Source of the DNA: Candidatus Hodarchaeota archaeon
GTDB lineage: Archaea > Asgardarchaeota > Heimdallarchaeia > Hodarchaeales > Hodarchaeaceae
Reading direction: 5' to 3'
DNA: 47,089 bases
Assembly: GCA_029856365.1 (NCBI GenBank)
Contig: JAHQWW010000020.1
Span: 1 to 47,089, forward strand
Every line of letters begins with the position of its first letter. Position 1 is the first letter of the stretch. Of the stretch, positions 303 to 29,694 are shown in pieces. The notes under the pieces were generated by a model. That model made no database searches. It saw only the letters and a list, made by a program, of their open reading frames with translations, and had not been told where the DNA came from. The position numbers and the translations under genes are program-made.

Positions 303-1709
303 TGATGAGTAACTTCGACAAGCTTACCTTTTTAAACCTAACGTATTCATTCGTCACATTTTTCTCACCTGACCTTTAAAAAAGTTTTTCTCCAATCAAA
401 TAGCAATCTGGCCAGGGTTCCAGATCAGAATAACGTAAATCCTCTAGTAACAAAGTTAAATGATCTTGCCAGCGAGGGAATCCTAGCAATAACAAATAAT
501 AGACCAGAACAATCTGTAATAAAGTCACCAAGAGACAATGGGTCACGAAGCTCATCCAGGTTGTTCCCAAAGGCTGTTTAATTGTCGTCTGTTGTTTCAT
601 CCATTGAAACAGGGTTTCGATCCCCCAGCGTTCCGTTTGGAGCTGAAGAATTGTTAAGGGGTCTAAATCGAGGTTTCCAGTAAATACATCCCAAATTTTC
701 CCAGTTATAGGATCAGGGATGCCAATAATGCGACGCCACGGCTGATTATTACTCGAAGACCAGACCAGTAGTTCTAACGGTTCATTTTCGGATTTTGGAA
801 AATCAAGGATTTCTAGTTGGATTCCAATTAGGGTGCGATTCTTCCAAGGGATAGTCCAACCCCACCCTTGGCGATCCAACTCGTGAAAGCGTTCTTTTTT
901 CCAGTACCCCCGATCAAAGACCAAGAAAGGACGAGGATGATCAGTAAAAGAATTGAATGACAGCCAACTCGCTATTTCTTCTGTTTCATTCAATAAAACG
1001 TCAGCTACGGGAGATTCATGTTCATGACCTTGCGAAGGACCATAGTTGACAATGACTCCCTGAATTCCGTCTTGGACTGTGTGTAATCGAGCACTTGGAA
1101 GAGCTTTCTTTTCAGAAGCAACGTATCCCCAAGTAACATAAGGATAACGATCAGGAGAGAGCTTTAAACTAGTACAGTCTACCCGAAAAGGATAGTAACC
1201 ATGTTGTAGGAGGGTAAGCTGAGCATATGATGGCATAAAAGGGATTTTCTTCCGTGAAAGTGGAATTAACTGTTGATAGGTCTGGAATGTTCTCACTAAC
1301 ACTTCCTGAATCCGTTGGTCGGGAATTTTCCGTGAGTACTGTCCTTGAGTCGGCACGTTTCCGTTTAGACTACAAATGGCTTGCCAAAGGTGGTTTTGTT
1401 CGAATTGACGGACAAACTGTCTCACCTTATGGAATTTATGGATTTGCATGAGGAAAAAGCTTTTTATCCACTGTTCCGTGGTGAATTCTTTCCGATACTG
1501 GTCTGCGTCGGTCTCCTGAATGTGTTTCGTGAGAATACGGGTCAGATGAGTAGTTTTAAAAACTTGGACTGTCCGTGAGGGATAGTGACGGAGTCCGTTT
1601 TTTAACGCATGTATTTCTTGTTTAAGAGACATAGAAAGACATTTGACTCAGAAGTTAAATGCTTATGGGTCAGCTCCGTCATTACTCCCCGTATGTGACT
1701 TACTCATCA
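303..1709 (-). mobile_element. IS4-family insertion sequence (putative extent)
   Basis: The transposase ORF is bracketed by a perfect 10-bp inverted repeat, TGATGAGTAA (303-312) / TTACTCATCA (1700-1709). No target-site duplication was recognised. Confidence 0.6.
376..1632 (-). CDS. IS4-family DDE transposase
   Basis: Motifs RVDCTSL (D1), ARLHTV, HES, LVFDRGY (D2) and ERWGIETLFQWMKQ (YREK-like, catalytic E). Confidence 0.9.
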   Translation of the reverse strand: MSLKQEIHALKNGLRHYPSRTVQVFKTTHLTRILTKHIQETDADQYRKEFTTEQWIKSFFLMQIHKFHKVRQFVRQFEQNHLWQAICSLNGNVPTQGQYSRKIPDQRIQEVLVRTFQTYQQLIPLSRKKIPFMPSYAQLTLLQHGYYPFRVDCTSLKLSPDRYPYVTWGYVASEKKALPSARLHTVQDGIQGVIVNYGPSQGHEHESPVADVLLNETEEIASWLSFNSFTDHPRPFLVFDRGYWKKERFHELDRQGWGWTIPWKNRTLIGIQLEILDFPKSENEPLELLVWSSSNNQPWRRIIGIPDPITGKIWDVFTGNLDLDPLTILQLQTERWGIETLFQWMKQQTTIKQPLGTTWMSFVTHCLLVTLLQIVLVYYLLLLGFPRWQDHLTLLLEDLRYSDLEPWPDCYLIGEKLF

Positions 1710-9034: not shown

Positions 9035-10510
9035 ATGATATCAGTGAAAAAACGAATAAATCAGAAAAAAGTGGAATTTGGTGATTTTCAAACCCCCATC
9101 GAATTAGCAGCAAAGATTGTCAATCATTTGAAAGAAATGAAGATCACCCCTGCTTCTATCATCGAACCAACATGTGGAACTGGCTCATTTATTATTGCGT
9201 CACTAAAATCATTTTCAGACGCAAAGATTCTCGGATTTGATGTTAATTCTAAATACATAAATTCTCTATCGGAACAATTAACGCAAGATAATACCTCAAA
9301 AAGAGTAGAACTTCACCAGGCAGACTTTTTCAAAACAGATTGGCAAGAAAAGATAAGAGAGCTTACTGAACCAGTGTTAATATTAGGAAATCCTCCATGG
9401 GTAACATCTTCAGGAATTAGTGTCTTAGGTGGAACTAATATTCCTGAAAAGTGTAATATTTATAGTTATCAAGGATTAGATACTAAAACTGGGAAAAGTA
9501 ATTTTGATATCTCTGAATGGATGATAATAGAGCTCTTAAAAGCTTTAAATGGACATTTAGGTACTCTTGCTATGCTTTGTAAAGTTACTGTTGCACGAAA
9601 AATATTGATGTATGCTAAAAAAGAAAAATTAATGGTTTTTTCTTCGAAAATACATCTTATTGATGCTAAAGAGTATTTTGACGCCTCTGTTGATGCGTGT
9701 TTATTCATCTGTAACTTAAGACCTGAATCACATAATTATTATTCTCAAGTTTATGAGAAATTTGATTCAACCAACCCAATTCAAGAAATTGGATATATTG
9801 ATGAAAGAATGGTAGCAAATATATCATTATATAAAAAGTGGAAACACTTACTTGGGGAAGGTACTTACGTTTGGCGTTCAGGGATCAAACATGATTGTGC
9901 AAGAGTGATGGAACTAAAAAGAAAAGAGAATAGATTTCTTAACGGATTTGGAACAAATGTTACTATTGAAGATGATTATATTTACCCAATGCTTAAAAGT
10001 TCTGATTTAGCTAATGACCGAACCAAGAATATTGAGCGATGGATGATTGTTACACAGAAGTCTATCGGAGAAGATACATCTACTATCCAACAGAAGGCTC
10101 CTTTAACATGGGAATATTTGGAGAAGAATGCACATCTTTTTGAGAATCGAGCAAGCAGCATATATTGGAATCGTCCTCAATATTCTATATTTGGTGTCGG
10201 AAGTTACACGTTCTCTCCTTGGAAGGTTGCGATTTCTGGTTTTTATAAAGATCTGAAATTCAGATTAATAGGCCCGTTTGAAAAAAAACCTGTTGTATTT
10301 GATGATACTTGTTACTTCATTCCAGCCAAATCGTTGGAGGAAGCATCAATGCTTCATTCTATATTGAATCATCCAATTGCACACGAATTCTATCATTCTT
10401 TCATCTATTGGGACGCAAAAAGACCAATCACAAAACAAATTCTACAACAACTAGATTTGAAAAAATTATGCCCTGAAATTGGTTATCCTAGACTTCTGGA
10501 TTTCAAGTGA
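9035..10510 (+). CDS. N6-adenine DNA methyltransferase (gamma-type motif order), orphan
   Basis: FGDFQTP, motif I IEPTCGTGSF, motif IV GNPPW and a C-terminal TRD-like region. No adjacent REase. Confidence 0.88.
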   Translation: MISVKKRINQKKVEFGDFQTPIELAAKIVNHLKEMKITPASIIEPTCGTGSFIIASLKSFSDAKILGFDVNSKYINSLSEQLTQDNTSKRVELHQADFFKTDWQEKIRELTEPVLILGNPPWVTSSGISVLGGTNIPEKCNIYSYQGLDTKTGKSNFDISEWMIIELLKALNGHLGTLAMLCKVTVARKILMYAKKEKLMVFSSKIHLIDAKEYFDASVDACLFICNLRPESHNYYSQVYEKFDSTNPIQEIGYIDERMVANISLYKKWKHLLGEGTYVWRSGIKHDCARVMELKRKENRFLNGFGTNVTIEDDYIYPMLKSSDLANDRTKNIERWMIVTQKSIGEDTSTIQQKAPLTWEYLEKNAHLFENRASSIYWNRPQYSIFGVGSYTFSPWKVAISGFYKDLKFRLIGPFEKKPVVFDDTCYFIPAKSLEEASMLHSILNHPIAHEFYHSFIYWDAKRPITKQILQQLDLKKLCPEIGYPRLLDFK

Positions 10511-11157: not shown

Positions 11158-11235
11158 TAGTTCATAAAATTCTTATAATGATCGAGGCGTTTTTTCTTTT
11201 ATGTCAGAAAAAGGCATAGAATTAATGATGAAATT
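11158..11235 (+). repeat. Copy 1 of a 78-bp direct repeat (promoter + first codons)
   Basis: Gapless match to 12531-12608 with 12 mismatches in 78 nt by manual alignment. Confidence 0.85.
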
Positions 11236-12530: not shown

Positions 12531-12608
12531 TAGATCATAAAATTCTTATAATTAATGATGTACTTTTTCTTTTATGTCAAAAAAAGCCATAGAATTAATG
12601 ATACAATT
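12531..12608 (+). repeat. Copy 2 of a 78-bp direct repeat (promoter + first codons)
   Basis: See copy 1. Encodes MSKKAIELM versus MSEKGIELM. Confidence 0.85.
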
Positions 12609-16054: not shown

Positions 16055-17173
16055 ATGAGATCAATGCAGAAAAGCACTGAATCAAGAAATAAGACACCAA
16101 CAGAAGGTAGAACAGAAATCCCTCCAATAAATGTTCGTTCACTCGTTTTAGCGATTATGTTGTCGCTCATCTTTTCGCTAGGGGGATTATTTTTGATGGT
16201 GATAGTCCCTCAGGAATTAAATCGCTTTTTAGAAAATTACATCTCTGATCCATGGTATACTGATTCATCTGAGGAAGAACTCCAAGTACGGGCACAATAT
16301 GAGTCAGTGGTAGCTTTTCTTAGGCCCATAGGGTACCTTTCGTTCTGGTTAATGATTTCAATAATAATCCTTGGAGTAATCATTGAGCGGTACAAGCTGA
16401 GCTTTTTAGGATCATTAACCTTCTACCTTCCAATTTTTGGTCAATTTGCTGTAATGATGGGCCCTCAATATTTCTTTGCAGGCATTGGCGTGTCACGAAC
16501 CCTTTGGCTACCTGTTCTGGAGCAAGCCCCCGAACTCTTGAATCTAGGCGTGATATTTTACGTTCCACTATTGGTGATATTTTTACTGATTGTTCCTCCT
16601 CTTTTTTTCTTAATGAGTATTCTAGCTAAATCACTCTTGATACCTCCCCCGATAGGGAATGTATTGATTTATATGTTCCTTCTTTTTATTAGTGGAATAG
16701 GTTTTTTCATTTTTACATTTGCGGTGGTGACGTGGTTATATGGACGTTTTCAAGGCCGGAAGGTCATAGATTTTTGGATTTATCGTTATTCAAGACATCC
16801 ACAATATTTAGGCCTTATTATCTGGAACTATGGCCTGTTAATGTTATCATCATTTTCATTAATTTCCCATAGTGGCCTCTTCCCCCCCACCTTCCCTTTC
16901 CTCGTATTGTCTTTGGTAATCATTGGGATGGCTCTGAATGAAGAGAATACAATGATTCGACAACATACTGAGGAATATATTCCTTGGCGCGAGCGAACAT
17001 CTTTCCTAGTTCCTTTACCTCGAAGAATCAAATCATTTATTACATATCCTATGAGAAAGTTGATAAAAAAGGAGTGGCCTGAGAATAATAAAGACATTGT
17101 CGTGGTTCTACTAATTTATGGGGGTATTGTGGTCTTGTTGTCGGTTCCCCTTGTGAATTATTTCATCTGGTAG
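16055..17173 (+). CDS. Polytopic membrane protein, isoprenylcysteine carboxyl methyltransferase / DUF1295 family
   Basis: Multiple TMs, IYRYSRHPQYLG and EENTM...Y..W..RT..LVP. Confidence 0.8.
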   Translation: MRSMQKSTESRNKTPTEGRTEIPPINVRSLVLAIMLSLIFSLGGLFLMVIVPQELNRFLENYISDPWYTDSSEEELQVRAQYESVVAFLRPIGYLSFWLMISIIILGVIIERYKLSFLGSLTFYLPIFGQFAVMMGPQYFFAGIGVSRTLWLPVLEQAPELLNLGVIFYVPLLVIFLLIVPPLFFLMSILAKSLLIPPPIGNVLIYMFLLFISGIGFFIFTFAVVTWLYGRFQGRKVIDFWIYRYSRHPQYLGLIIWNYGLLMLSSFSLISHSGLFPPTFPFLVLSLVIIGMALNEENTMIRQHTEEYIPWRERTSFLVPLPRRIKSFITYPMRKLIKKEWPENNKDIVVVLLIYGGIVVLLSVPLVNYFIW

Positions 17174-17445
17174 TAGTGAAAACTTGGAGAGTTTGAGTGA
17201 TACTTCGAATGCCAATGCTCGTTTACGAATCCCAACGATTCCGCAGCAAACGCCCCCGAGTCCATAAATATTGGCTGACATTGTAAAATTTGTTTTAACA
17301 AAAAATCATCCCTCCGGATTAACCCTGACTCGAAGAATGAGAGTACCGATAAAAACACGGACTCCTTGAACCTCCACAAGGCGAATGGGGCCTCTTGCCA
17401 TTCAGGGTAGAATGGCAGGAAATGTTTGAAATAGAGCTGAAACAC
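17158..17445 (-). pseudogene. 3'-truncated tRNA-guanine transglycosylase (TGT/DpdA)-like gene
   Basis: IFMDSGAFAA resembles the DSG(G/A)F motif of TGT-fold enzymes. The ORF ends ~25 codons later, overlapping a convergent gene. Confidence 0.5.
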
Positions 17446-17716: not shown

Positions 17717-18040
17717 CTACTCTATCTTATGTTTTTGAATGTCCGTTTCTAGCTTGGCAATCTCCTTTTCCCGTTGTTGATACTCCTCCATACCCGCTAA
17801 CTCTTCCCTCACCGCTGCACTTCGCATTGTTTCGTTGGTGAACTTCTTTTTCCCGAAAGCATCTAGTACTTCAAACACCTCGCGTGTCACCTGATCCATG
17901 ATGACCTGTTGTTCCCTCTGTAACCCTTCCACCGTTGAGATCGCCTCTAGCGTTGTCAGCTGTATAATCTTTAACTGTTCAATGTCCTTCATTATTCTGG
18001 TGTATAACTCTTCTTGTGCAGTCTTTTCCCCTTCTGCCAT
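17717..18040 (-). CDS. Small coiled-coil protein
   Basis: Glu/Gln/Lys-rich helical heptads and a GAGG RBS upstream. Confidence 0.65.
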   Translation of the reverse strand: MAEGEKTAQEELYTRIMKDIEQLKIIQLTTLEAISTVEGLQREQQVIMDQVTREVFEVLDAFGKKKFTNETMRSAAVREELAGMEEYQQREKEIAKLETDIQKHKIE

Positions 18041-18159
18041 TCGCTCTTTTCCTCTCCATTTTTCTTTTCTATGGCAAGTCCACTGATGTCCTTATGATGA
18101 TTTCCTCTTTGTGTTTAAAGAATAGATCAGATCCCCTATCTCTGTATTCTCCCTGTTTA

Positions 18160-19047
18160 TTATTTATGACTCATATCATTATAGATTGAGGGTGATAATG
18201 ACGTGGATTGACCAGGAGATTTGTGATCGGGGCTATCACTATCGGGAATATGCCCCAGTTTGGGGTATTTCGATCGAGTGTTCTCTTTCCACTTCCTAGA
18301 TAGATTTATCAGGAGCATTATTATGAAATAATATAGTTCTGCCCAGACTAACGCACCTATAAGGGCAAGAAGCATATTCCCACCTGTACGGAAGGTGAAT
18401 TCCACAAAAAGGCAGACGAATCCAAATACCATCCAATACATCAGGAAATCTGGAACCCATCCGTTGCGTACCATCGCATAAAACACTGTTTCAAAGTCCG
18501 TTCCATTAGGGATGATCACACTGAGCACCAATGAAAAGTACAAGTGAATAAAATAGCTAATAGCTGGATTAGCTTGAAGAAGAAACGGGAATATTAGTAT
18601 ATAGCCTATCAAGAACATGGCGAATGGTTTCCACGAAGCCATAGAAACTCGAATGTAGTCATCTAACCGAGTAGAAGAAAAATAGACATTTGAGCCATCC
18701 AGTTGTGAGTCCAATTCTAGACGGCAATATACTCCTAACTCAATCCGATCTACTTTGTTATCTGATGATTTACTAAGATAAGTCTGTTCATATGCTTGTT
18801 CCTCTTTTTGATCATTTTCTAATCCTCGGGCAGTATTTACCCGTATTATAAATCGTGATCTTTTAAAAGGACGTGTTAGGGCAGCAGCAATCCGACTAAG
18901 GAAAGGGATCAGATAGGAAAGAAGTCGTAACACAAAAAGGTTCACTAATACAAAAAGAATTGTTATTAGAGGATCGCTTATGTCAAATAAATTACAATAC
19001 CAGATAAAAATGAGGAACAGATCTGAGAGAAGTTCGAACAGGATCAT
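18160..19047 (-). CDS. Multi-pass membrane protein, hypothetical
   Basis: About six hydrophobic segments. The PNGTD motif is reminiscent of the PSxxD of DUF3267/M50-like proteins, but there is no HExxH. Confidence 0.7.
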   Translation of the reverse strand: MILFELLSDLFLIFIWYCNLFDISDPLITILFVLVNLFVLRLLSYLIPFLSRIAAALTRPFKRSRFIIRVNTARGLENDQKEEQAYEQTYLSKSSDNKVDRIELGVYCRLELDSQLDGSNVYFSSTRLDDYIRVSMASWKPFAMFLIGYILIFPFLLQANPAISYFIHLYFSLVLSVIIPNGTDFETVFYAMVRNGWVPDFLMYWMVFGFVCLFVEFTFRTGGNMLLALIGALVWAELYYFIIMLLINLSRKWKENTRSKYPKLGHIPDSDSPDHKSPGQSTSLSPSIYNDMSHK

Positions 19048-19113
19048 GGAGTTTCATCCATAAAACTATTAGGATCCTTCACTTAAATATACAGAATTAC
19101 TTTCTTTGATTTC

Positions 19114-19124
19114 AAATATATAAG
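19114..19124 (+). promoter_or_regulatory. TATA-box candidate for the Vps4-like gene
   Basis: AAATATATAAG lies ~25-30 nt upstream of ATG 19148 (leaderless spacing). A similar TATATAAG at 20437-20444 precedes ATG 20475. Confidence 0.4.
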
Positions 19125-19147
19125 AGGTATATACAAATCAGAATCAG

Positions 19148-20425
19148 ATGATCAGAATGAGTACATCAAATCAACCCCCTTCTACTATAATGACAGCACA
19201 TAGCTATTTTATGAAAGCAGAAGGAGAGCTTGATGCTAATAATATATTTGGGGCATTAGATTATTATAAGAAAGCGTCTGATCTCTTCACTACTGAATTA
19301 CAACACTCACCACAATTTCCTAACAAAGAAATCTGGGAAAAAGAGTTGGCCTTGATAGATCGTAAAATGAAAACGATTCAGCCCATACATTCCCTCTCCA
19401 CTTCAGAATCATCATCCTACTCATTTCATCCTTCAATGTATGAGGAGCTCATTCTAAGTATGCGCCATGTTTATCCAAAAACAGGAGTATGGAATCCAAA
19501 TATCATTGGGTTAGACTCTGTCAAACAGCTTCTTGATAGACTTTTGATACCATATACTCGGGAGGAGATATGGGAAGTAGATGAAAAACCACCTTTGAAG
19601 GCGTTATTATTTGGTGCTCCAGGATGTGGGAAAACACATCTGATAAAAGGTTTTGGGGAAAAAACAGGGTTACCCCTCTACGATATAGTTCCAGCGAAGG
19701 TGATCAGTAAATATATCGGTGAGAGTGAGAAAATTTTAACCTCCTTATTTAAAAAAGCTTATCTAGAGGAATCTGGGTGTATCTTGTTTTTTGATGAGTT
19801 TGATGCCCTTGTCGGTTCGACTCGTACGGATTCAGAGGCATTGGTACGGGTGAAGAAAGGATTATTAACCCTTATTGACGGATTTGACGTCCCAACCAAG
19901 AATAAAACCATTATTATCGCTCTTACCAATCGGCCAGATCTTTTAGGAGGTGCTATGATGAGACGGTTTGACTTACGGATTTATGTTCCTCCACCAGATT
20001 ATGATACGATCTATAACCTCCTAGAACATCTGTTAGGAAAATTGGGAATTGCTATTGATTTTACCTCACGAGAATGGCATCAGATCATTACTTCCTTTTT
20101 GGGATTCACTTTTAGTGAAATCTCGACCATTGTCCGAAGTCTGATCTGGAAATATTATGATAATTTTGTTGGGAGGAATTCGGCTGAAATTTTTCTTCGG
20201 CATAAACTGAAAGAGGCTATTGCTCAATTCACTCCCTATTTTGCGAATTTTGATTCGTTGGAACCTGCTACTTTTCGCTTTCTAGATCAAGCATATGGAT
20301 TTCCCCGAAGTAACCTCTCCCGATACTCATGGGAAACAAAATTAATGCAACTTAAACATAAACTAATACAATCCCATCCTAATCCCAATATTATTTACCG
20401 AAGAAAGCACAATAACCAACTTTGA
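19148..20425 (+). CDS. Vps4/CdvC-like AAA+ ATPase with N-terminal MIT domain
   Basis: MIT-like three-helix AHSYFMKAEGELDANNIFGALDYYKKASDLF. IIGLDSVK, Walker A GAPGCGKT, pore loop SKYIGESEK, Walker B ILFFDEFDAL and SRH TNRPDLLGGAMMRRFDLRIYVPPPD. Confidence 0.85.
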   Translation: MIRMSTSNQPPSTIMTAHSYFMKAEGELDANNIFGALDYYKKASDLFTTELQHSPQFPNKEIWEKELALIDRKMKTIQPIHSLSTSESSSYSFHPSMYEELILSMRHVYPKTGVWNPNIIGLDSVKQLLDRLLIPYTREEIWEVDEKPPLKALLFGAPGCGKTHLIKGFGEKTGLPLYDIVPAKVISKYIGESEKILTSLFKKAYLEESGCILFFDEFDALVGSTRTDSEALVRVKKGLLTLIDGFDVPTKNKTIIIALTNRPDLLGGAMMRRFDLRIYVPPPDYDTIYNLLEHLLGKLGIAIDFTSREWHQIITSFLGFTFSEISTIVRSLIWKYYDNFVGRNSAEIFLRHKLKEAIAQFTPYFANFDSLEPATFRFLDQAYGFPRSNLSRYSWETKLMQLKHKLIQSHPNPNIIYRRKHNNQL

Positions 20426-20474
20426 CATTTTTAGAGTATATAAGGTACTGGAGGCATATATAGAATAGAAAACG

Positions 20475-21140
20475 ATGAAGAACATTACCCATTATTATTT
20501 TGCTGTGGCAATAATATTGGTCGACATCTGGCTCTTGGATCCATTATCCTCTCTTGAAAAACTCCTGTTATTTCCTGTTGTGATTGGAGCTGGATCTTTA
20601 ACACTTCTACCAAATAAATTGGAAAAATGGCTTTGTATTGACCGAAAGACACGAACCTGCACCGAACGGTGTCGTCATCCGCTTACTCATCATCCTGTAC
20701 TCGTATTTGTACTCATCTGGATTTTTGGACTGATTCCTATAACCCCACCATATTTTCGGGTGTATCATCTTCTTGCGAAAATGATTCTCCTAGCCATTGG
20801 CTCTCATTTGGTACTTGATATGCTGACTCCAGAGGGCCTCCCTCTCGGACTTACCCCAACCGTGTTTTGTCAGGACGATACGAAAAATTACTCTTTCAAT
20901 GATATTACCAAACCCCGTATGCGATTGCGATTGTTTCAAGGGATTTTTTCAAGGGACAGTAGTAATGCTAATCGAAATATCATACTCACCAGTAAACTAA
21001 TTTTACTCGTATATTGTTTTGTATTAGTACTGGAAATTACCTATAATCCAGAAATATTGACCACTCTTTATCAAATCGTATTTGCACACTTAAATGGGTG
21101 GATTATGCTTGTGAAGGGAGAACTGAAACCATGGTTTTAA
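20475..21140 (+). CDS. YdjM-like (LexA-binding inner-membrane) metal-dependent hydrolase
   Basis: N-terminal TH, RHPLTHH and SHLVLDMLTPEGLP, with TM segments. Confidence 0.7.
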   Translation: MKNITHYYFAVAIILVDIWLLDPLSSLEKLLLFPVVIGAGSLTLLPNKLEKWLCIDRKTRTCTERCRHPLTHHPVLVFVLIWIFGLIPITPPYFRVYHLLAKMILLAIGSHLVLDMLTPEGLPLGLTPTVFCQDDTKNYSFNDITKPRMRLRLFQGIFSRDSSNANRNIILTSKLILLVYCFVLVLEITYNPEILTTLYQIVFAHLNGWIMLVKGELKPWF

Positions 21141-22147
21141 AGAGTGAGCATTTCAAGCAATATTTCACTTGGTTAGTTGTCGGGTTGCTTTATATTTTTT
21201 TGATCCATCCTTCTTCTGTCGAATGTGTCACAGCTTCTAGTATAGAAGCTAAATCGCACATTTTAGATCATGATTTACGATTAGCACGAGTGATTGAGGT
21301 AAATCAACAAATTATGACGATTAATCTTCAATCCTACCCTCTCTATCTTACTGAGTCGAGTTATATGACATTTGCACTATTTGAAGTTGAAAATGCAGGA
21401 GATGAGTTGAAAAAGATTACCATAATCCTGAGTGCTAGGGGGTATGAGTGGGAGGAACTCTTTCAGAGAAAAGAGGCTTTAGTTGATTATTGTTATGATT
21501 TTACGGAATTAACCGAGCTATATGTACCTTTGGAGGGAATTGATAACTTACCTCCACCCCTCACTCTACAAATATTTCTCATCCTTGAATATTATCCTCA
21601 ACTCAGTGACACTTCCGCACGATTTAGCCTTCTTAAAACCATATTGCGCCAAATCCGCTCTGTTCCCGAGTCTGATCTCTTAATCTTTCCTACAGAGTTT
21701 AATCTTAACTTCCCAAATCACACATATTCCTTTGAAACAGCTCACTTTATCTTAACTTCATATTATCTTACAAATATTACCGCTTCGGAACGACTCTCCG
21801 CTCTAATAGAACTAAAGACTGAAGTTTCTGTTAGAGTCCTTGAATCATCCGAAATAACACAAATTAACAATGCAGGTAATCTGACAAGCTTTCAAGTCGT
21901 CATGATCACCAACCTGACAAAACGAAGAGTTAGCCTTGAAGTCCAAGGAATGATTAGTGGCCACTCCTACGCTGTAACATTGAAACTTCATTCCACCGAG
22001 ATACAGCAGCAAAATCATTCTATTTTCCAAGGCAGTTTACCAGCTCATCCAATCCCCTCTTGGCTTATGATGCCCTTCTGGCTCATCTTTCTCTTTGGGG
22101 TTCCCATCATTTACCTCTTCAGGCAAGAGGATGAATCGATCAAATAA
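21131..22147 (+). CDS. Secreted/membrane-anchored beta-rich surface protein
   Basis: Likely start ATG 21131 overlaps the upstream stop (coupled). N-terminal signal/TM, beta-rich body, C-terminal TM WLMMPFWLIFLFGVPIIYLF. Confidence 0.7.
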   Translation: MVLKSEHFKQYFTWLVVGLLYIFLIHPSSVECVTASSIEAKSHILDHDLRLARVIEVNQQIMTINLQSYPLYLTESSYMTFALFEVENAGDELKKITIILSARGYEWEELFQRKEALVDYCYDFTELTELYVPLEGIDNLPPPLTLQIFLILEYYPQLSDTSARFSLLKTILRQIRSVPESDLLIFPTEFNLNFPNHTYSFETAHFILTSYYLTNITASERLSALIELKTEVSVRVLESSEITQINNAGNLTSFQVVMITNLTKRRVSLEVQGMISGHSYAVTLKLHSTEIQQQNHSIFQGSLPAHPIPSWLMMPFWLIFLFGVPIIYLFRQEDESIK

Positions 22148-25061
22148 ACGAAGAATCATGTCGCGTCGAAATGTAATAATATTCCAATTTATGCTACCAG
22201 GCATTTTTGTTATAGTAGGATACAATTATTTAAACACGATCCAGTATTCTGAGGGTTATGATATCCTCCGATTAGTCTTTCTTTCATTGATAGGAACTTT
22301 CTTAGGACAATACCTCTTCGATCAGATAGATCAACAAGAAAGAATTCTGAACATGTCTTATGAAGAAGAAGCCGAGCTTTATGGCTTTCTCAAACTCCCC
22401 AATGCATTATTTTTCGATTTCGGGTATAAATTGAGTACCATTTTTGGAATCCTCTTTTCTTCCACGACTAAAACTGATAATTATGCCCCTATTATAGAAT
22501 ATCAGACCCAATTTAATCTTAATCAGGGGGAATCACAGATTGGCACTTATTATCTCTGTTGTTATGAGATACCTATGGATCAAGATTGGCACTCTTCATC
22601 CAAACAACGCCAACAGCATCATATGGAGCAAATAAAGCAGCAAATTGCTAATACTCAACATGTTCTCCAGAAACAAATTCCGGGTGTAAAATTTCGTTTT
22701 CTTACCCGTTCCGAAATATTAGAAGAACATGGCTTTAATGGAGATAGTGGATGGGATGAACTCCTAGCTTCTGATTTTATCAATTTAGGGAAAGTGAAAG
22801 TAACAAGATACAATAACGACGTTCTTCTCATAACAAAAATCTCTCCCGATAATCCTAAAGTAAAAGAACAAGTACTCCTTTCAATTATTGGGGTAACAAC
22901 AGACCTCAAAGATAATTTCCACCTGCTTAATCGAGTTCCAGAGGGACATAACGGAGTCTCTACTTGGCGTTGGAATCGGGTGGAAGAGCAATACAAGAAA
23001 GGTTGGTTACATCCTCGGAAAATTTTCACCACACAAAATTATATCATCATTAAATCATCCCTTCAAGGAGCGGATTCTTTTTTCCAACAGACCTTGGATC
23101 AATTATATGAACAACTCCTTGAAACACGAAAGGATGTCCTCAGTTTTGTCAAGAATGGATTTAAATGTACTGATATTAAGAAAGAAGACTTGATGCGAGT
23201 CTTTCTTCACAAGAATCCTGTTGAAACGGGAAAGGGAAGAGTCAAGTATGATCAAGCATATCTTCGCGCTGTCACACAGCTAACCCGAGTTCCTGGCAGG
23301 ATGATCCCCATGTTACCCTACAGTACGGTTCCTGTTAATATCCCATTGGGTACCAACTTTATTAATCCAGAGAAAATCATAGGATTAAAAGAGTTATCGA
23401 AACTCATTGTCTATTGTGGATCAGATCAAGAACTTTTGACTGGCGCTTTACAACATTTTATTAAAACAATCTTAACACCTGAGAGAAAAATTATCATTAT
23501 TGATTTTAATAATGACCTTGGGAGTCTTGTTAATGTGCTTTCTCGGGGAAAAAAGGATAACACTCCTATCACACTTTTACAATTGGGACAAAACTTCTCG
23601 CTCAATATCTACGACGTCGAACCTCCTGCCCACATCTCCAACCGGAACAGCCAGACCGCTTATCAAATGAATACCGTCGTTCATATGCTGGCTTATGCTA
23701 GTAAAACAGATGTACTGGTAACGAATCTTGTACAACTTAGACATGCCATGATAGAGGTAGCTAAGAAGTTAAATCCTAAGGAGTCACACGAAGAGTTGTC
23801 CCTTCAAAAAATTACAGATTCTGAGGTCTTTTCTGACGTTTTTCGGACAACCGATCATCTTACCATGGAACGTCTTGGCAGAGAACTCGAGTATTATTCA
23901 GCATCCCCAGAACTTAATGATGGGAATAAATACTCTGATGTTATCAATAATCTTGGCCGGACTCCTGGGATTACGTTGATTCAATTTCCAACACAGACCT
24001 ACGTCCACAAGCGACTTGCATTTGTATTTCTACTTCAAAAATTGGCAGCTCGTTGTGATACGCAAACAATAGTTGTTGTAACCCATGCGTCAAAACTCTT
24101 CGGAAAAGAGAATGACAATCTTCAACAACGAATTTTTGAAGAATCCGTCAACCAACCTTACTCTAAGATTCTTCACTCAGGCTGTTTGGTACTTGCTACC
24201 CATTCCGTGACAACTTTGCACCCCGAAATACAAAAAGATATTACGACAGGAGTGTTTTTTAGGTTACTAAATGTTGAAGATCGGGACTGGCTTTCAGTTC
24301 GATATACTCTCGAAGCGAAACTTGCTGATGATGTTCCCAATGTATCTGCATTTCTCAAAAGTTTACAAGGGGAGGGACTATTATTTCGAGAGGATAATAT
24401 CCATACCTGTGATCATTTCGTTCCATTTACATTAGACCCTGTAGAATCCATACATAGGGGTGAGGATGAATCTCCTATTCCCTCTTTAGATCCGCTTTCT
24501 TTGGATGAAGTACAATTTACACTATTAATTACTGTTTTAGGTCACATTCAGAACCAAGCTGTTACCGAGCACACAATGCTTCAATATCTTCGTGATTTAG
24601 GCTATACAATCATTATGACAAATTGGGAGAATGTGTGTAGGTTTCCCTATGTTACCCTTTCCAGCAATGGAAACGATAGAATCCTTTCCATCACTGAAGA
24701 AGGGAAATCATATTACTCTTATATTAATACCCTTGTCCAGCAACTTCCTCCTCCTATAGCATTAGATTCACTTACCATTGATTCCACTCTAAAAGATCTA
24801 GGCGATCGTGTCAATCAATCATTCCAAAATAATCCTGTGGAACATCAACAACTCAAAAAAGTTATTGGGGAAGTAGCGGGCGCTCTTCTAAATGAATACC
24901 TGCGGATTCAGGGTATTACCGACTGGTGTCTTGTGAAGAAGTATGTAGATTTACTGGAAATCGAGGGGATTCACCCTAATCACCATTCTCAGCGATTTGC
25001 CCTATTAGAATTGTTGTATGCACAGATAGAAAATAACCTACAGGCAAAACCATCCTCATAA
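22131..25061 (+). CDS. Membrane-anchored HerA/FtsK/VirB4-like ATPase, catalytically degenerate, with C-terminal wHTH-like region
   Basis: Two N-terminal TMs. HerA-like strand order: LIVYCGSDQELLTG (eroded Walker A), KIIIIDFNND, FSLNIYD, IVVVTHASKLF (eroded Walker B DEAH), LVLATHS and FFRL...DRDWL. LSITEEGKSY wing. Start ATG 22131 or 22158. Confidence 0.6.
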   Translation: MNRSNKRRIMSRRNVIIFQFMLPGIFVIVGYNYLNTIQYSEGYDILRLVFLSLIGTFLGQYLFDQIDQQERILNMSYEEEAELYGFLKLPNALFFDFGYKLSTIFGILFSSTTKTDNYAPIIEYQTQFNLNQGESQIGTYYLCCYEIPMDQDWHSSSKQRQQHHMEQIKQQIANTQHVLQKQIPGVKFRFLTRSEILEEHGFNGDSGWDELLASDFINLGKVKVTRYNNDVLLITKISPDNPKVKEQVLLSIIGVTTDLKDNFHLLNRVPEGHNGVSTWRWNRVEEQYKKGWLHPRKIFTTQNYIIIKSSLQGADSFFQQTLDQLYEQLLETRKDVLSFVKNGFKCTDIKKEDLMRVFLHKNPVETGKGRVKYDQAYLRAVTQLTRVPGRMIPMLPYSTVPVNIPLGTNFINPEKIIGLKELSKLIVYCGSDQELLTGALQHFIKTILTPERKIIIIDFNNDLGSLVNVLSRGKKDNTPITLLQLGQNFSLNIYDVEPPAHISNRNSQTAYQMNTVVHMLAYASKTDVLVTNLVQLRHAMIEVAKKLNPKESHEELSLQKITDSEVFSDVFRTTDHLTMERLGRELEYYSASPELNDGNKYSDVINNLGRTPGITLIQFPTQTYVHKRLAFVFLLQKLAARCDTQTIVVVTHASKLFGKENDNLQQRIFEESVNQPYSKILHSGCLVLATHSVTTLHPEIQKDITTGVFFRLLNVEDRDWLSVRYTLEAKLADDVPNVSAFLKSLQGEGLLFREDNIHTCDHFVPFTLDPVESIHRGEDESPIPSLDPLSLDEVQFTLLITVLGHIQNQAVTEHTMLQYLRDLGYTIIMTNWENVCRFPYVTLSSNGNDRILSITEEGKSYYSYINTLVQQLPPPIALDSLTIDSTLKDLGDRVNQSFQNNPVEHQQLKKVIGEVAGALLNEYLRIQGITDWCLVKKYVDLLEIEGIHPNHHSQRFALLELLYAQIENNLQAKPSS

Positions 25062-25184
25062 GGTAGATTTTATCCCCTTTCATCCGCCTTTTTATCCATT
25101 AGAATTTTTGAATATAAATAGGTTTGATGAGAATAGTGAGTAGAACAGTTCAGGGGTTCCACCATCAACTGTTCATATATTTGA

Positions 25185-28100
25185 TTGAGGATGAAAATGG
25201 CCTTTGAGGAAGAAACTCATCAGCAGCAGGATGATGAAATCACACGGCTTCAAAAACAGAAGGAAAATGACCAATTCCAACGCGAGCTTGATGTGATCAT
25301 CACTCGTCTAGAAAATGAGCAATTTCAAAAGGAACTCGATGAGATCATTGAGCGACTTGAACAAAAGGCTCAAGAGCATCCATCTACTAAAGAAGAAATA
25401 TCATTGGATGAATCTGTGACAGAAAAGGAGAGGGAACTGCCAAATCCACTTGAAATTTTATCTCAAAGCTCAGAGGATCAACTGATCCTCCAAAAAGAAC
25501 ATGAAAAAGAGCAGCAAACACAAAACCAAGATTTAACAAAATCGGAAGATACAAAGAGGAATCAAGAGGGAGAGTTGCGACATGAATTAGATGTCTTGAC
25601 TGAGTGTCACGACCAACATTTCTCCAAATATGAAGAGAATACAGAAGGACAAGTTACTGAGGATCAAGTGTCTCAACGGATGCAGAGACAGAAATACGAA
25701 AAGACTGTTGAAGACTTGCGAGAGGGGGTTGAAATCACTTCTCAACAGCAATCATTAACTGAAAAAGAACCAACTCCGTATAAAGATGTCCAATCTATTT
25801 TTCATGAGGAAAAAACTGAAAAAGAGCTCTATAGAATAAAAGAAGAATCAGGATTGCCCTTACAAAGAACTCTTCTCAGAAAACGATCATACTGCATTGA
25901 TTTTGGCCCAACAATGATACCAAGGGTTGAAAAATTCGGTTTTACACAATCAACACCGATAACAGTAACTGTCCATGATAGGGATTCCAATAAAAGTGAA
26001 TCATACATAAGACGAATGGGAAAAATTACAGGAAAGAAACCAAACAGGAGTATGACATTCGCTTTGGGATCAGACATTGGAGATTTATATAAATTCGACA
26101 CAAAACAAAAAGTCCTTGCAAAAGTCATGAAAAATAAAATGGAGATTACATTAGAGAAAGAAAATTACAATTATAGGTTTATTATAACCCCAGGAATAGA
26201 CCAAAATCAGAAATATAGCATTTTAAGAGCTTATACACAAGTCTCAGATTATATTAATACTTTTTCTACTAAAGAAATCCCTGTACTGGAACGGTTTGGG
26301 TTTAAACCATCGAATAACGTATTATTTCATGTTTACCAGAAAACATCACACAAATTTCTTGAACAATCAGTAATTAGATTAGGTGAATCACGAAAAGTAG
26401 GTCAAAAAAGCTATCAATTAAAACTGGGTCTTCCTCAAACGACATTGAAACGTTTTAATTTTGGAAATTCAAGGCTAATTAAATTTACAATAACACCAAA
26501 TAAAATGGTTCTAACACAAGTCAAAAAAGATGATCCGCTGAAGGAAAGGCAAGAATATAATTATTATTTCACTATTACGCCTTTTAAAGAAAAAAAGATT
26601 GGAATTACCCAGCGGGGCCTTGAGAGAATAAACTACTATTATGCAGCCTACATTGGATATGAATTTGAACGATTAGGGCAAGAAATCCTGTCTTATCTCT
26701 TTCCAAAGGCTCAGATCTACAGACAACGAGAACATCTAGTCAAAATTAAAGGAAAAGAAAAAACAATTCGGCCTGATGCAACATTACTTGAGCATGGTAA
26801 GCCCATGACCTTTATTGATTTCAAAAAATCAATAGGAGCAATTCGGCCAAGAACTCTCAATTATCTAAGATATTTTCCAAAAAGTCGCTTAATAATCGGT
26901 GTCCTAGAAGAATTTGGTCATTCTTGGGGAAAAAAACATATAAAAAACAAACTGAACAAAATGGGATTGAATCAGACAGAGAAAAAAGAAATAATGACAC
27001 GAATCACCGTCTTACATAAGTCTGATATCGCAAGCAGGTTACCGAAGGAAAGAAAGAGGGAGTTTGAGACAAAAATCATGGAAATTCAAAATGAACTGCC
27101 GAAAGACAGGTTAGATGCGCTAAAAAAGGCGAAAAAATTAACTACCAAGATAATAGACAGATTGAGTGGTTTAGGATTACCCCAAGAAACAATTGGAAAA
27201 GTTAACAAGCCCACTCGGGGAATACTGCGCAGCTTACAAAGCCTTCTGATCTTAGAAAGGTTATTATCATCTGATTATGAAACAGTAAAGAGTTTAGCAG
27301 ATCACGATGAATTAAAGGATAAACGAATGGTTCAGCTGCGACTAAGACAACTAGAAAGGATCGGGATAGTGAGAGAAAGATATTTTAGAGTGGGATTATC
27401 GAATAGATATTACTATTATTATTTTGAGAAAAAACCACCTGAATTAACAGATATTCTAGAACCTCAAGCAGTAAATGGATTAAAAATACTAATGAAAAAT
27501 AACTATATTCCAAGGAAAGAGGTGAATGACAAAGTTTTACAAAGAATCATTGGTCCTCATTGGTTAACAGCGTTAAAAATATCTTCTATCATTAATGAAA
27601 AGAAAATTATAACGATGGAAGATTTAGCTTCTGAAGATAATATTAAAATTGAGTCTCATCATCAAGTCCTTTATTCTTTAAAAAAGATAGGAGTTGTCAA
27701 TTACTATCGAATCTTCAGAGAATTTAATGACCATAAAGTTGTTTACTTCTTTACTCATGATTTTCCAAATGGATTGACTCTTTTAGACCAAATAAAATAC
27801 TTGAAACCTTATCAGAAAACCATTTTGAATGAGTTTCAGAGAAATAATATAATAATCCCAGAACTTAATTCATTTAATGAATGGTTGGGAGATCATTGGC
27901 CAGTTGTATTAAGAGTCTATAATGTATTACTTACTAATGAAAATTTACCTCAATCAAATGGAACCAAAATACTCCATCTTTACGACTTAGTTCAGAGGAT
28001 GAAGGATTGTTCTTTTGGGATACGGAATGCACTAAACAAATTAGATGAGATTGGAGTATTAGATCGATATTCTTGGTTTGAAAAATCATTTTATTTTCAG

Positions 28101-28451
28101 TTTAAAGGTACTATACCAGTTCCTCTGACTGACAATCCCCTTCTTCCTATTGATATTAAAAAACCATTGAAAGCAATAGAGGAAATTACTAATATTCATT
28201 TTCAAGATCTAACTCATCTACGAGAAATTATGACGCGTCATTGGAAGAATTCATTAAGGATATACAAAATTCTATCAAAAATTGAGACTTCATACTCAAA
28301 AGGAATCAGTCGTGATAATCTTATAAAAACACTTAAACATAACAATATAATATTAAAAAATCTTACCAGATATATTAAACCTCTTAAGGACATGGGAGTA
28401 CTGTTTACATACAGGAATGGACAACAGATGTTCTATCAACTAAGATATTGA
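25185..28451 (+). CDS. Multidomain protein: acidic coiled N-terminus, duplicated beta-rich module, PD-(D/E)XK nuclease, four tandem wHTH repeats
   Basis: GYEFERLGQEIL...IRPDATL...FIDFKKS. Repeats LRQLERIGIV / LYSLKKIGVV / LNKLDEIGVL / IKPLKDMGVL and IIGPHW / WLGDHW / IMTRHW. Confidence 0.75.
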   Translation: MRMKMAFEEETHQQQDDEITRLQKQKENDQFQRELDVIITRLENEQFQKELDEIIERLEQKAQEHPSTKEEISLDESVTEKERELPNPLEILSQSSEDQLILQKEHEKEQQTQNQDLTKSEDTKRNQEGELRHELDVLTECHDQHFSKYEENTEGQVTEDQVSQRMQRQKYEKTVEDLREGVEITSQQQSLTEKEPTPYKDVQSIFHEEKTEKELYRIKEESGLPLQRTLLRKRSYCIDFGPTMIPRVEKFGFTQSTPITVTVHDRDSNKSESYIRRMGKITGKKPNRSMTFALGSDIGDLYKFDTKQKVLAKVMKNKMEITLEKENYNYRFIITPGIDQNQKYSILRAYTQVSDYINTFSTKEIPVLERFGFKPSNNVLFHVYQKTSHKFLEQSVIRLGESRKVGQKSYQLKLGLPQTTLKRFNFGNSRLIKFTITPNKMVLTQVKKDDPLKERQEYNYYFTITPFKEKKIGITQRGLERINYYYAAYIGYEFERLGQEILSYLFPKAQIYRQREHLVKIKGKEKTIRPDATLLEHGKPMTFIDFKKSIGAIRPRTLNYLRYFPKSRLIIGVLEEFGHSWGKKHIKNKLNKMGLNQTEKKEIMTRITVLHKSDIASRLPKERKREFETKIMEIQNELPKDRLDALKKAKKLTTKIIDRLSGLGLPQETIGKVNKPTRGILRSLQSLLILERLLSSDYETVKSLADHDELKDKRMVQLRLRQLERIGIVRERYFRVGLSNRYYYYYFEKKPPELTDILEPQAVNGLKILMKNNYIPRKEVNDKVLQRIIGPHWLTALKISSIINEKKIITMEDLASEDNIKIESHHQVLYSLKKIGVVNYYRIFREFNDHKVVYFFTHDFPNGLTLLDQIKYLKPYQKTILNEFQRNNIIIPELNSFNEWLGDHWPVVLRVYNVLLTNENLPQSNGTKILHLYDLVQRMKDCSFGIRNALNKLDEIGVLDRYSWFEKSFYFQFKGTIPVPLTDNPLLPIDIKKPLKAIEEITNIHFQDLTHLREIMTRHWKNSLRIYKILSKIETSYSKGISRDNLIKTLKHNNIILKNLTRYIKPLKDMGVLFTYRNGQQMFYQLRY
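25263..25358 (+). repeat. 2x48-bp coding tandem repeat (ENDQFQRELDVIITRL / ENEQFQKELDEIIERL)
   Basis: Visible directly in DNA and protein. Confidence 0.75.
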
Positions 28452-28548: not shown

Positions 28549-29694
28549 TTGTCAAAAGTCGCAGTTATCGAAACAATGCCCCAGAATATCATTGAAGATT
28601 ATTCTAAATTGCTAGATCTTATAGATTTCCATTCTATAATTAGAAAAGAATTGAAAACAATCATTAAAATAAATTTATCTTGGACACGATTTTACCCCGC
28701 ATGTTCTACCCCTCCATGGCAACTAGATGGGGTATTACAAAAATTAACCAAAGATGGATTCAAATCAGAAGATTTAATCCCCGTAGAAAACCAGACTGTC
28801 GTGACAAAACCATGGGAAGGCTTCTTTGAAAACAAACTCCTTAAAGTTTTAAGTAATTACAACACCCAGTTTCGTCCTCTTACCAATGAAAAATGGGTTA
28901 AATTTGATCCTAAGGGTGACGTTCCTTGGATGCGAGAATTATTCAAGGATAATATTATCATTCCAGAAGTGTTTATGAATAGCAATATTGTACATTTACC
29001 TACTTTGAAGGTGCATGGCCACACAGTCACAACGGGAGCGATCAAAAACGCTTTTGGAGGATTAATTCCGAAGTACCGTCACCATTCTCATCGAATAATT
29101 GATGGCATTTTAGTTGATTTATTAACAATCCAAAAAGAAATCCACCCAGGCATGTTAGCAGTGATGGATGGTACCGTTGCTGGAGATGGTGCTGGCCCTC
29201 GTGTAATGGAGCCCGTTTACACTAATCTTCTTCTTGCGAGTGAAGATCAAGTTGCTATTGATGCCCTTTCTGCCAAGATAATGGGTTTTGACCCCTTGAG
29301 TATAAAATACATCCAAATGGCTCATGACCAGGGCCTTGGTACTGGGGATGTTGATCAGATTGAGATAATTGGATTAGACTCCGAAGAAGTACAAAATATG
29401 AATTTTAATTTCAATGTGAAACGAAGTCTTGTGGTCCGGTGGGATCAAAGGTTACGAAATACTACTTATCGCTATCGTCCATTAAAACCCTTTCACTGGT
29501 TGTTTTTCCACACTCCAATCTTCAAACTGTTGATCGCAGGATCGAGCATATATCACGATTGGTTCTGGTATAGATTCATTGGAAAAAGAAAAATCGAGAT
29601 GTTCCAGCAGACAGACTGGGGTAAATTGTTTGATAGCTACAAATATGGTGAGAAAGAAGAATATCCAAAAATTAAAGACTGGAATCCCTATTGA
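28549..29694 (+). CDS. DUF362 domain protein
   Basis: IKINLSW, HLPTLKVHGHTVTTGAIKNAFG, VMDGTVAGDGAGP and ASEDQVAIDA. GGTGTGA RBS and TTG start. Confidence 0.88.
   Translation: MSKVAVIETMPQNIIEDYSKLLDLIDFHSIIRKELKTIIKINLSWTRFYPACSTPPWQLDGVLQKLTKDGFKSEDLIPVENQTVVTKPWEGFFENKLLKVLSNYNTQFRPLTNEKWVKFDPKGDVPWMRELFKDNIIIPEVFMNSNIVHLPTLKVHGHTVTTGAIKNAFGGLIPKYRHHSHRIIDGILVDLLTIQKEIHPGMLAVMDGTVAGDGAGPRVMEPVYTNLLLASEDQVAIDALSAKIMGFDPLSIKYIQMAHDQGLGTGDVDQIEIIGLDSEEVQNMNFNFNVKRSLVVRWDQRLRNTTYRYRPLKPFHWLFFHTPIFKLLIAGSSIYHDWFWYRFIGKRKIEMFQQTDWGKLFDSYKYGEKEEYPKIKDWNPY

Follow-up and report, generated by a model that had tools for sequence, protein, structure and literature searches.

Vps4 is known almost solely as the motor that disassembles ESCRT-III, and the locus described here raises the question of what a Vps4-like AAA+ ATPase might do in the company of membrane proteins, a catalytically dead HerA/VirB4-like ATPase and a nuclease. 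The locus lies in a 47,089-nucleotide stretch (the window) from Candidatus Hodarchaeota archaeon (assembly GCA_029856365.1, JAHQWW010000020.1), which is contig C165 of a 4.2 Mb genome that is 84% complete and is termed G000 here; relatives are given as genomes labelled G001 onward, metagenome contigs with L numbers and proteins with P numbers. An earlier reading of the sequence (the original prediction) had proposed a new membrane-linked system for nuclease export or defence, encoded by seven open reading frames (ORFs) between positions 17717 and 28451. All seven ORFs were found where it had placed them, and the block proved to be syntenic in other genomes. We conclude that the island at this locus is a hybrid of two units, a membrane/pseudo-ATPase set and a unit of MIT-AAA ATPase and acidic nuclease; seen in one genus of Hodarchaeales, this combination points to a possible new means by which nucleases are delivered or unleashed in cell–cell conflict.

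The island recurs in seven of the 22 genomes of the genus, this one counted (G000, G002, G003, G012, G018, G020 and, in part, G017), and in four metagenome contigs (L080, L081, L309 and the contig encoding P0003). Synteny is retained at 28-85% identity with rearranged gene orders; in G012, the island is spread over several contigs and, at 6% contamination, its copy number is unsure. Named relatives of the window proteins come from Hodarchaeales and Ca. Heimdallarchaeota B3_Heim. The membrane unit has its parent in a core cluster of the order. Another, older pseudo-ATPase copy is present in 23 of 24 genomes of the order (island copies being counted where only those were assembled), and a search of 399 genomes, with two candidates scored per genome, found the family in these 23 and in one genome outside the order. 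Second copies of the genes for the 295- and 338-residue proteins are present in most genomes of the order. The intact core cluster also holds Hrq1/MrfA, XPD, RadA, a RadB-like gene, a PD-(D/E)XK nuclease and a 1600-residue Ig-like surface protein, and the order RadA, pseudo-ATPase, XPD is kept in relatives only 14-17% identical. Five core genes have paralogs in the island, each coding for a membrane protein or for the pseudo-ATPase, whereas the core DNA enzymes were not copied; for each membrane gene, the island copies form a clade with support of 91-100. From this gene content, we infer that the five proteins form one membrane unit. The island can be regarded as a natural deletion experiment, in which the five core-cluster genes copied together name the likely subunits of an uncharacterised membrane machine.

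The other parent is a subfamily of AAA ATPases whose constant neighbour is the acidic nuclease protein, not the pseudo-ATPase. The window copy (425 residues, 19148-20425, forward strand) is probably a fast-evolving Vps4 paralog, termed B type, that was classified with Pfam, NCBIfam and trees. It matches Pfam AAA with an E-value of 8.5e-28 and MIT weakly (E 0.013, below the Pfam cut-off). Walker A, Walker B, the pore loop and the arginine finger are all intact, and by these motifs the protein is catalytically intact. Its best NCBIfam match is CdvC, at 122 bits against a cut-off of 650, and the island AAA carries a C-terminal extension of its own. As originally described, no ESCRT-III gene accompanies it: the housekeeping Vps4 and two Snf7 genes of G000 are on another contig, C32, and there is no Snf7 gene in the window or in any island. 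A sister subfamily (C type), which joins the B type at 99 in the tree, occurs without membrane genes; in at least seven genomes, its gene is directly followed by one for an 860-1500-residue protein whose head is acidic and whose tail is basic (loci in G000 C36, G001, G004, G016 and L146, and two each in G007 and G018). At G000 C36:26317-30547 (L185), a 439-residue C-type MIT-AAA, with RCF as its arginine finger, precedes an 861-residue acidic protein that stops just past the PD motif and is apparently truncated.

Free quick trees placed the B and C types outside Asgard Vps4 on a long branch. This placement was not upheld and likely reflects long-branch attraction, as a tree constrained to join them with the order's own Vps4 had a likelihood 8 log units better than the free tree (approximately unbiased test, p-AU 0.69). 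On the simplest reading, the AAA probably arose by duplication of the genome's own Vps4 and has evolved fast. The original prediction had set its proposal against an AAA nested within housekeeping Vps4 and partnered with ESCRT; the nesting may well hold, but the partnership does not, the gene being a separate paralog without ESCRT neighbours. Three diverged Hodarchaeota Vps4 paralogs with no ESCRT neighbours and no named partner have been described (PMC10936438). These probably correspond to the B/C-type subfamily, and the loci reported here offer them a candidate substrate and job.

The candidate substrate is encoded by the last gene of the island (25191-28451, forward strand; 1086-1088 residues), a modular protein with an acidic head (residues ~1-200), two beta-rich domains, a nuclease domain (nucleotides ~26650-27075) and several winged helices. 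The nuclease motif reads P530-D531...D545-F546-K547, and its PD...(D/E)xK pattern is invariant in the window protein, P0008, P0009 and P0011. Structure prediction gave a predicted local distance difference test score (pLDDT) of 58 overall and 66-90 over the nuclease part, with portions poor; the model matched PD-(D/E)XK folds with Z scores of 7.4-8.4 over 108-118 residues and winged helices with Z 8-9. With motif and model combined, we assign a PD-(D/E)XK nuclease with winged helices, as first proposed, with moderate confidence. The two beta-rich domains, compared as parts of the whole model and not folded alone, gave no reported fold match. The variable C-termini foreseen for this gene were found among relatives as swapped bodies and tips. 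The head and the body differ in their histories. Heads match the type of their AAA, but bodies have been swapped between types, such that the window nuclease body is 72% identical to that of P0009, whose head and AAA are both of the C type. C-type tails differ from one another, and many end in PD-(D/E/Q)xK motifs. A proline-rich PxxPxYDF motif resembling the MIM2 consensus (PMC5840170) was found in eight of eight full-length C-type partners and in none of eight island-type partners. Complex prediction for the window MIT domain with the acidic head returned a score of 0.00 with a poorly folded partner, which counts neither way.

Two families of C-type tips are tracked by downstream genes. A gene of 220-232 residues occurs only beside its cognate tip (twice in G016, with an orphan tip, and in G018), and a gene of 297-299 residues lies beside the second tip family, including an orphan tip in G012. 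Together with the orphan cassettes, this is a candidate toxin/immunity-like layout. The DUF362 gene next to the window nuclease (28549-29694, forward strand) was considered as an immunity gene and ruled out; it is present in 22 of 24 genomes and serves as a marker of the host site. In G020 and G012, a second nuclease type is immediately followed by a Tubulin/FtsZ-family gene (L023:14745-16118 and L029:5782-6040).

The 988-residue ORF upstream of the nuclease is a fusion. Its N-terminal part (22131-22760, forward strand), with two transmembrane segments and a soluble domain, is a separate gene of ~235 residues in most islands; its homolog in the core cluster is the membrane gene that adjoins Hrq1 (hhalign probability 93.6, E 2e-7). 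The remainder (22767-25061, forward strand) is a HerA/VirB4-fold pseudo-ATPase with a winged helix and a helical tail, as defined by modelling, fold comparison and alignment. The two genes are separate in G002, G003, G012, G018 and G020, and in most relatives the two halves lie on opposite strands; the window lineage joined them after a rearrangement. Sequence searches against Pfam and the PDB gave no family match for the 988-residue family, and the match is at the level of the fold. The model of residues 225-988 (pLDDT 82) resembled VirB4 (4ag5, Z 26.6, root-mean-square deviation 3.3, 333 residues aligned), DndH-C (Z 26.5), HerA (4d2i, Z 24.3; Foldseek E 2e-11), TrwB (1e9r, Z 21.0) and EccC/EssC (Z 12-14), with a PadR-like winged helix after the ATPase fold (Z 10). 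The Walker A Lys/Thr and Walker B Asp-Glu residues are missing, in agreement with the original description of a dead HerA/VirB4-like enzyme, and the loss of the Walker motifs extends to all 32 homologs aligned and to more distant relatives. The winged-helix/helical tail is kept in all complete core copies; three island copies (562-563 residues) have lost it, which hints that binding to DNA is less important in the island than in the core copies. A 715-residue HerA-like ATPase with intact Walker motifs is encoded in 22 of 24 genomes of the order (for example, G000 C41:19137-21284 and L085:540-2684), 6-15 kb from the core pseudo-ATPase copy in three of them, and is a candidate active partner of the pseudo-ATPase. 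In P0012 (621 residues, JGI), the pseudo-ATPase C-terminus is fused to the winged-helix end of a window-type nuclease; this is a deletion junction, showing the same gene adjacency in another genome.

The remaining membrane proteins are also core-gene paralogs. The 295-residue protein (18160-19047, reverse strand; ~6 transmembrane segments by scan) belongs to a family with two paralog classes, in which the island copies form one clade (100). Core copies show HxxxH, VAxAP and PSxxD motifs that by eye resemble M50-type peptidases, and the histidines are lost in the window copy; three tests gave no M50B/DUF3267 profile match, and searches against Pfam, NCBIfam, the PDB and the ESM Atlas gave no assignment, the Atlas leads being sub-threshold. 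The 221-residue protein (20475-21140, forward strand) matches the YdjM family (PF04307, E 3e-7, 30.5 bits against a cut-off of 29) with conserved His/Asp motifs and is a putative metal-dependent hydrolase. A compact overlapping operon with YdjM, the pseudo-ATPase and a 374-residue membrane gene, and with neither RadA nor XPD, was seen in a distant genome labelled Hermodarchaeota (L248:7883-12254). The third protein (21131-22147, forward strand) has 338 residues, or 349 from an upstream GTG, with a hydrophobic helix at each terminus, and is probably exposed on the cell surface; no family was found, and its ESM Atlas leads were sub-threshold only. Both overlaps noted originally are real: the ATG at 21131 overlaps the YdjM stop at 21140, and the ATG at 22131 overlaps the next stop at 22147.

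Both units of the island also share a promoter motif with the core cluster. A matrix trained on 20 core-gene sites of other genomes (TTTYRRN + TATA) scored 17.2 at the AAA gene (19110-19124, forward strand), the second-best value among the 3301 ORFs of the genome, 14.3 at the YdjM operon (20430-20444, forward), 11.3 at the nuclease gene (25106-25120, forward) and 9.5 at the 295-residue gene (19082-19096, reverse), the last being promoter-like and the weakest of the four. Flanking genes scored at most 5.4; in the genome, 1.2% of ORFs score at least 11 and 3.1% at least 8. When islands are pooled, 27 of 32 units score 9 or higher, though these come from related genomes and are not independent samples. 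Because its units carry the core cluster's rare motif, the island, nuclease included, seems to belong to the programme that also controls RadA and the envelope genes. A 493-residue ORF at G000 C128:11672-13153 (score 17.1) is a possible further member of this regulon.

We tentatively favor, with somewhat less than even confidence, a model in which the AAA takes hold of the acidic head and feeds the nuclease to the membrane unit, from where it would be delivered into a contacted cell. The five membrane/pseudo-ATPase proteins would form a membrane machine, with the dead HerA/VirB4 protein as scaffold or receptor; the AAA hexamer would grip the acidic head, as Vps4 grips ESCRT-III tails, and thread the nuclease to the machine; and the nuclease would reach the contacted cell and cut non-self DNA, with induction by whatever signal also switches on the recombination and envelope genes. 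The model draws on gene linkage, folds, intact and dead motifs, head/AAA co-variation and the shared promoter, from which head–AAA binding, complex formation, export and killing would follow as predicted steps. The toxin/immunity-like layout of C-type relatives and the MIT-only remnants next to core pseudo-ATPase copies (described below) also speak for it. That the island constitutes a new export route is possible, and we hold this part with less confidence. A number of observations weigh against delivery. No acidic giant immediately follows the islands of G018, L080 and the P0003 contig, several tips lack a clear nuclease motif, and the window head lacks the MIM2-like motif. No dedicated immunity gene lies beside the window nuclease: DUF362, its neighbor, belongs to the host, as do the tubulin-like, AcnX-like or HDAC-like genes that border other island nucleases. 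With ~860 residues and many DNA-binding domains, the body looks more like a site-specific enzyme than like a small toxin tip. Membrane genes are missing in cis from C-type modules, and only one of seven C-type AAA genes has the promoter. The island contains no pilin-sized ORF, with gaps between genes of at most 129 bases (a pilin in trans was not searched for), and no VirB6-like channel was identified, the 6-transmembrane protein being without profile or PDB assignment.

Some of these features would be expected if the nuclease stays in the cell that makes it. The membrane module might then be a second DNA-entry or cell-contact machine, and the nuclease, caged by a DNA-mimicking acidic head and uncaged by the AAA, would cut incoming foreign DNA or kill the infected cell. 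Such a protein needs neither a signal peptide nor an immunity gene; its long DNA-binding arrays, fold matches that include Can1/Can2 and restriction enzymes, and the promoter in common with recombination genes agree with this role, as does a core cluster that, like Ced/Ted, joins a HerA/VirB4 fold, membrane genes and repair genes (PMC9905601). A type II DNA methyltransferase gene in the window (9035-10510; PADLOC E 8e-172) adjoins DUF362 in other genomes, but it is also present without the nuclease; no nuclease has a PADLOC match, and the orphan tips and cognate genes of C-type relatives point to between-cell exchange. On balance we consider this gatekeeping role rather unlikely. A homing or drive element, in which a free-standing long-site endonuclease cuts empty alleles near a conserved host gene and the island rides along, would account for the position of the nuclease: window-type nucleases adjoin DUF362 in all four lineages with context, in both orientations and whatever is upstream (island, C-type AAA or nothing). 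DUF362 has a large in-frame insertion in three genomes (L146:6163-7372, with a Pfam intein match, G007:C28 and G021:C152), the 5´ 86 codons of DUF362 are duplicated upstream of the nuclease, flanking the insertion in L145, and expression would be tied to the recombination regulon through the promoter motif. Yet homing leaves the intact AAA, the head/AAA co-variation and the immunity-like genes unexplained, residence at one site may be vertical descent, and no target site was identified; we regard it as improbable.

The mechanism offered in the original prediction was that the AAA replaced the dead VirB4-like ATPase as motor of a membrane machine for DNA or protein transport. The AAA and pseudo-ATPase genes are indeed linked in every island with enough context, and adjacent in L309, and MIT remnants adjoin core pseudo-ATPase copies: in G000 (C41:2252-5325, L055), an 87-residue MIT-only ORF, which has the promoter motif (score 18.2) and most resembles the heads of C-type AAAs, is head-to-head with the core copy, and a similar remnant is found in G011. 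The idea is nevertheless weakened, to a point we judge even less probable than homing, because the ATPase is dead family-wide and its death is older than the AAA link, because core copies persist where no AAA of the subfamily was found (for example, G005, G010, G013, G014, G015, G019 and G021), and because an active HerA-like ATPase is available in nearly all genomes of the order, close to the core copy in some. Least probable, and in our view very unlikely, is that two unrelated units became neighbors in a single event and have since been co-inherited with no function in common. Each unit does exist alone, some islands lack the nuclease, and decayed remnants are common (G007, G017). However, the linkage survives inversions, fusions and moves among at least four chromosomal sites, ORFs are intact at 30-45% identity, and the island AAA and nuclease genes carry the core promoter that is mostly missing from C-type AAA genes.

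The 107-residue coiled-coil ORF (17717-18040, reverse strand) had been counted in the block; the ORF is present, but it was ruled out as an island member, with only a frameshifted remnant in G007 and no counterpart in other islands. A 95-codon ORF with a DSGxF motif (17158-17445), formerly read as a truncated TGT-like gene, has no profile match and no homolog in the genome or the fetched loci. The island borders showed neither an integrase nor a duplicated end, and the GC content of the island is close to that of its flanks. Because the methyltransferase gene is directly upstream of DUF362 in G005, G009 and G017, the 18 kb between the two in the window may be accreted insertions. We also noted a 372-residue PEMT/ICMT-like membrane gene (16055-17173), of which contigs C88 and C41 hold copies or fragments at 73-77% identity. 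Further features are a DDE transposase at the left end of the window (376-1632) and a 78-bp direct repeat (85% identical; 11158-11235 and 12531-12608) flanking two small genes.

If, as in the delivery model, nucleases pass between cells under a recombination promoter, the closest lineage to eukaryotes would couple kin discrimination to DNA exchange; in vitro work on the AAA and nuclease parts requires no culture. No known system model matched the island, as had been anticipated: PADLOC-DB 2.0 gave generic AAA matches only, and there was no NCBIfam system match. We found no description of the hybrid in the literature searched, which left most subscription papers outside its coverage. Likeness to IetAS is limited to generic AAA similarity to IetA, at a score far under the cut-off and without an S8 protease, and likeness to HerA-partner defence systems (Sir2-HerA, DUF4297-HerA) to a HerA fold match, with dead motifs and neither Sir2 nor DUF4297.

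Type VII secretion combines EccC/EssC with EccA, and type IV secretion uses coupling proteins. The island likewise places an FtsK/HerA-superfamily fold at the membrane with an accessory AAA+ ATPase, but no WXG100 substrates were seen, the fold is closer to VirB4/HerA, and the AAA is Vps4-derived. With Ced/Ted (PMC9905601), the island shares a HerA/VirB4-fold protein, a 6-transmembrane protein and 2-transmembrane proteins, and its parent core cluster is linked to recombination genes and apparently co-regulated with them. In contrast to CedB/TedB, however, its VirB4-fold protein has no catalytic motifs; there is no pilin-sized ORF (VirB2/CedA1) in cis and no shown VirB6/CedA homology of the 6-transmembrane protein; and the island lost the DNA enzymes but acquired an unfoldase together with a variable nuclease. 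Because it has no catalytic VirB4, no pilin in cis and no assigned channel, the island is not a member of Ced/Ted.

Nor is it a housekeeping ESCRT locus. Vps4/CdvC docks on ESCRT-III through MIT–MIM contacts and threads it through its pore (PMC5840170, PMC10936438). The island AAA resembles these proteins in its MIT and single AAA domain, intact motifs and best NCBIfam match, but it has no ESCRT-III neighbor, falls far under the CdvC cut-off and bears its own C-terminal extension, and its putative substrate is the acidic nuclease protein. PD-(D/E)XK tips are found among the toxins of polymorphic toxin systems. Archaeal examples of such systems have been described (PMC6393860). The island departs from them in that its head is not a known trafficking type, its DNA-binding bodies are very large and the window nuclease has no immunity gene. 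Nevertheless, a conserved head with exchangeable C-termini, accompanied in C-type relatives by cognate downstream genes and orphan tip cassettes, is the layout of polymorphic toxins and, by this analogy, the island appears to work most like a polymorphic nuclease system.

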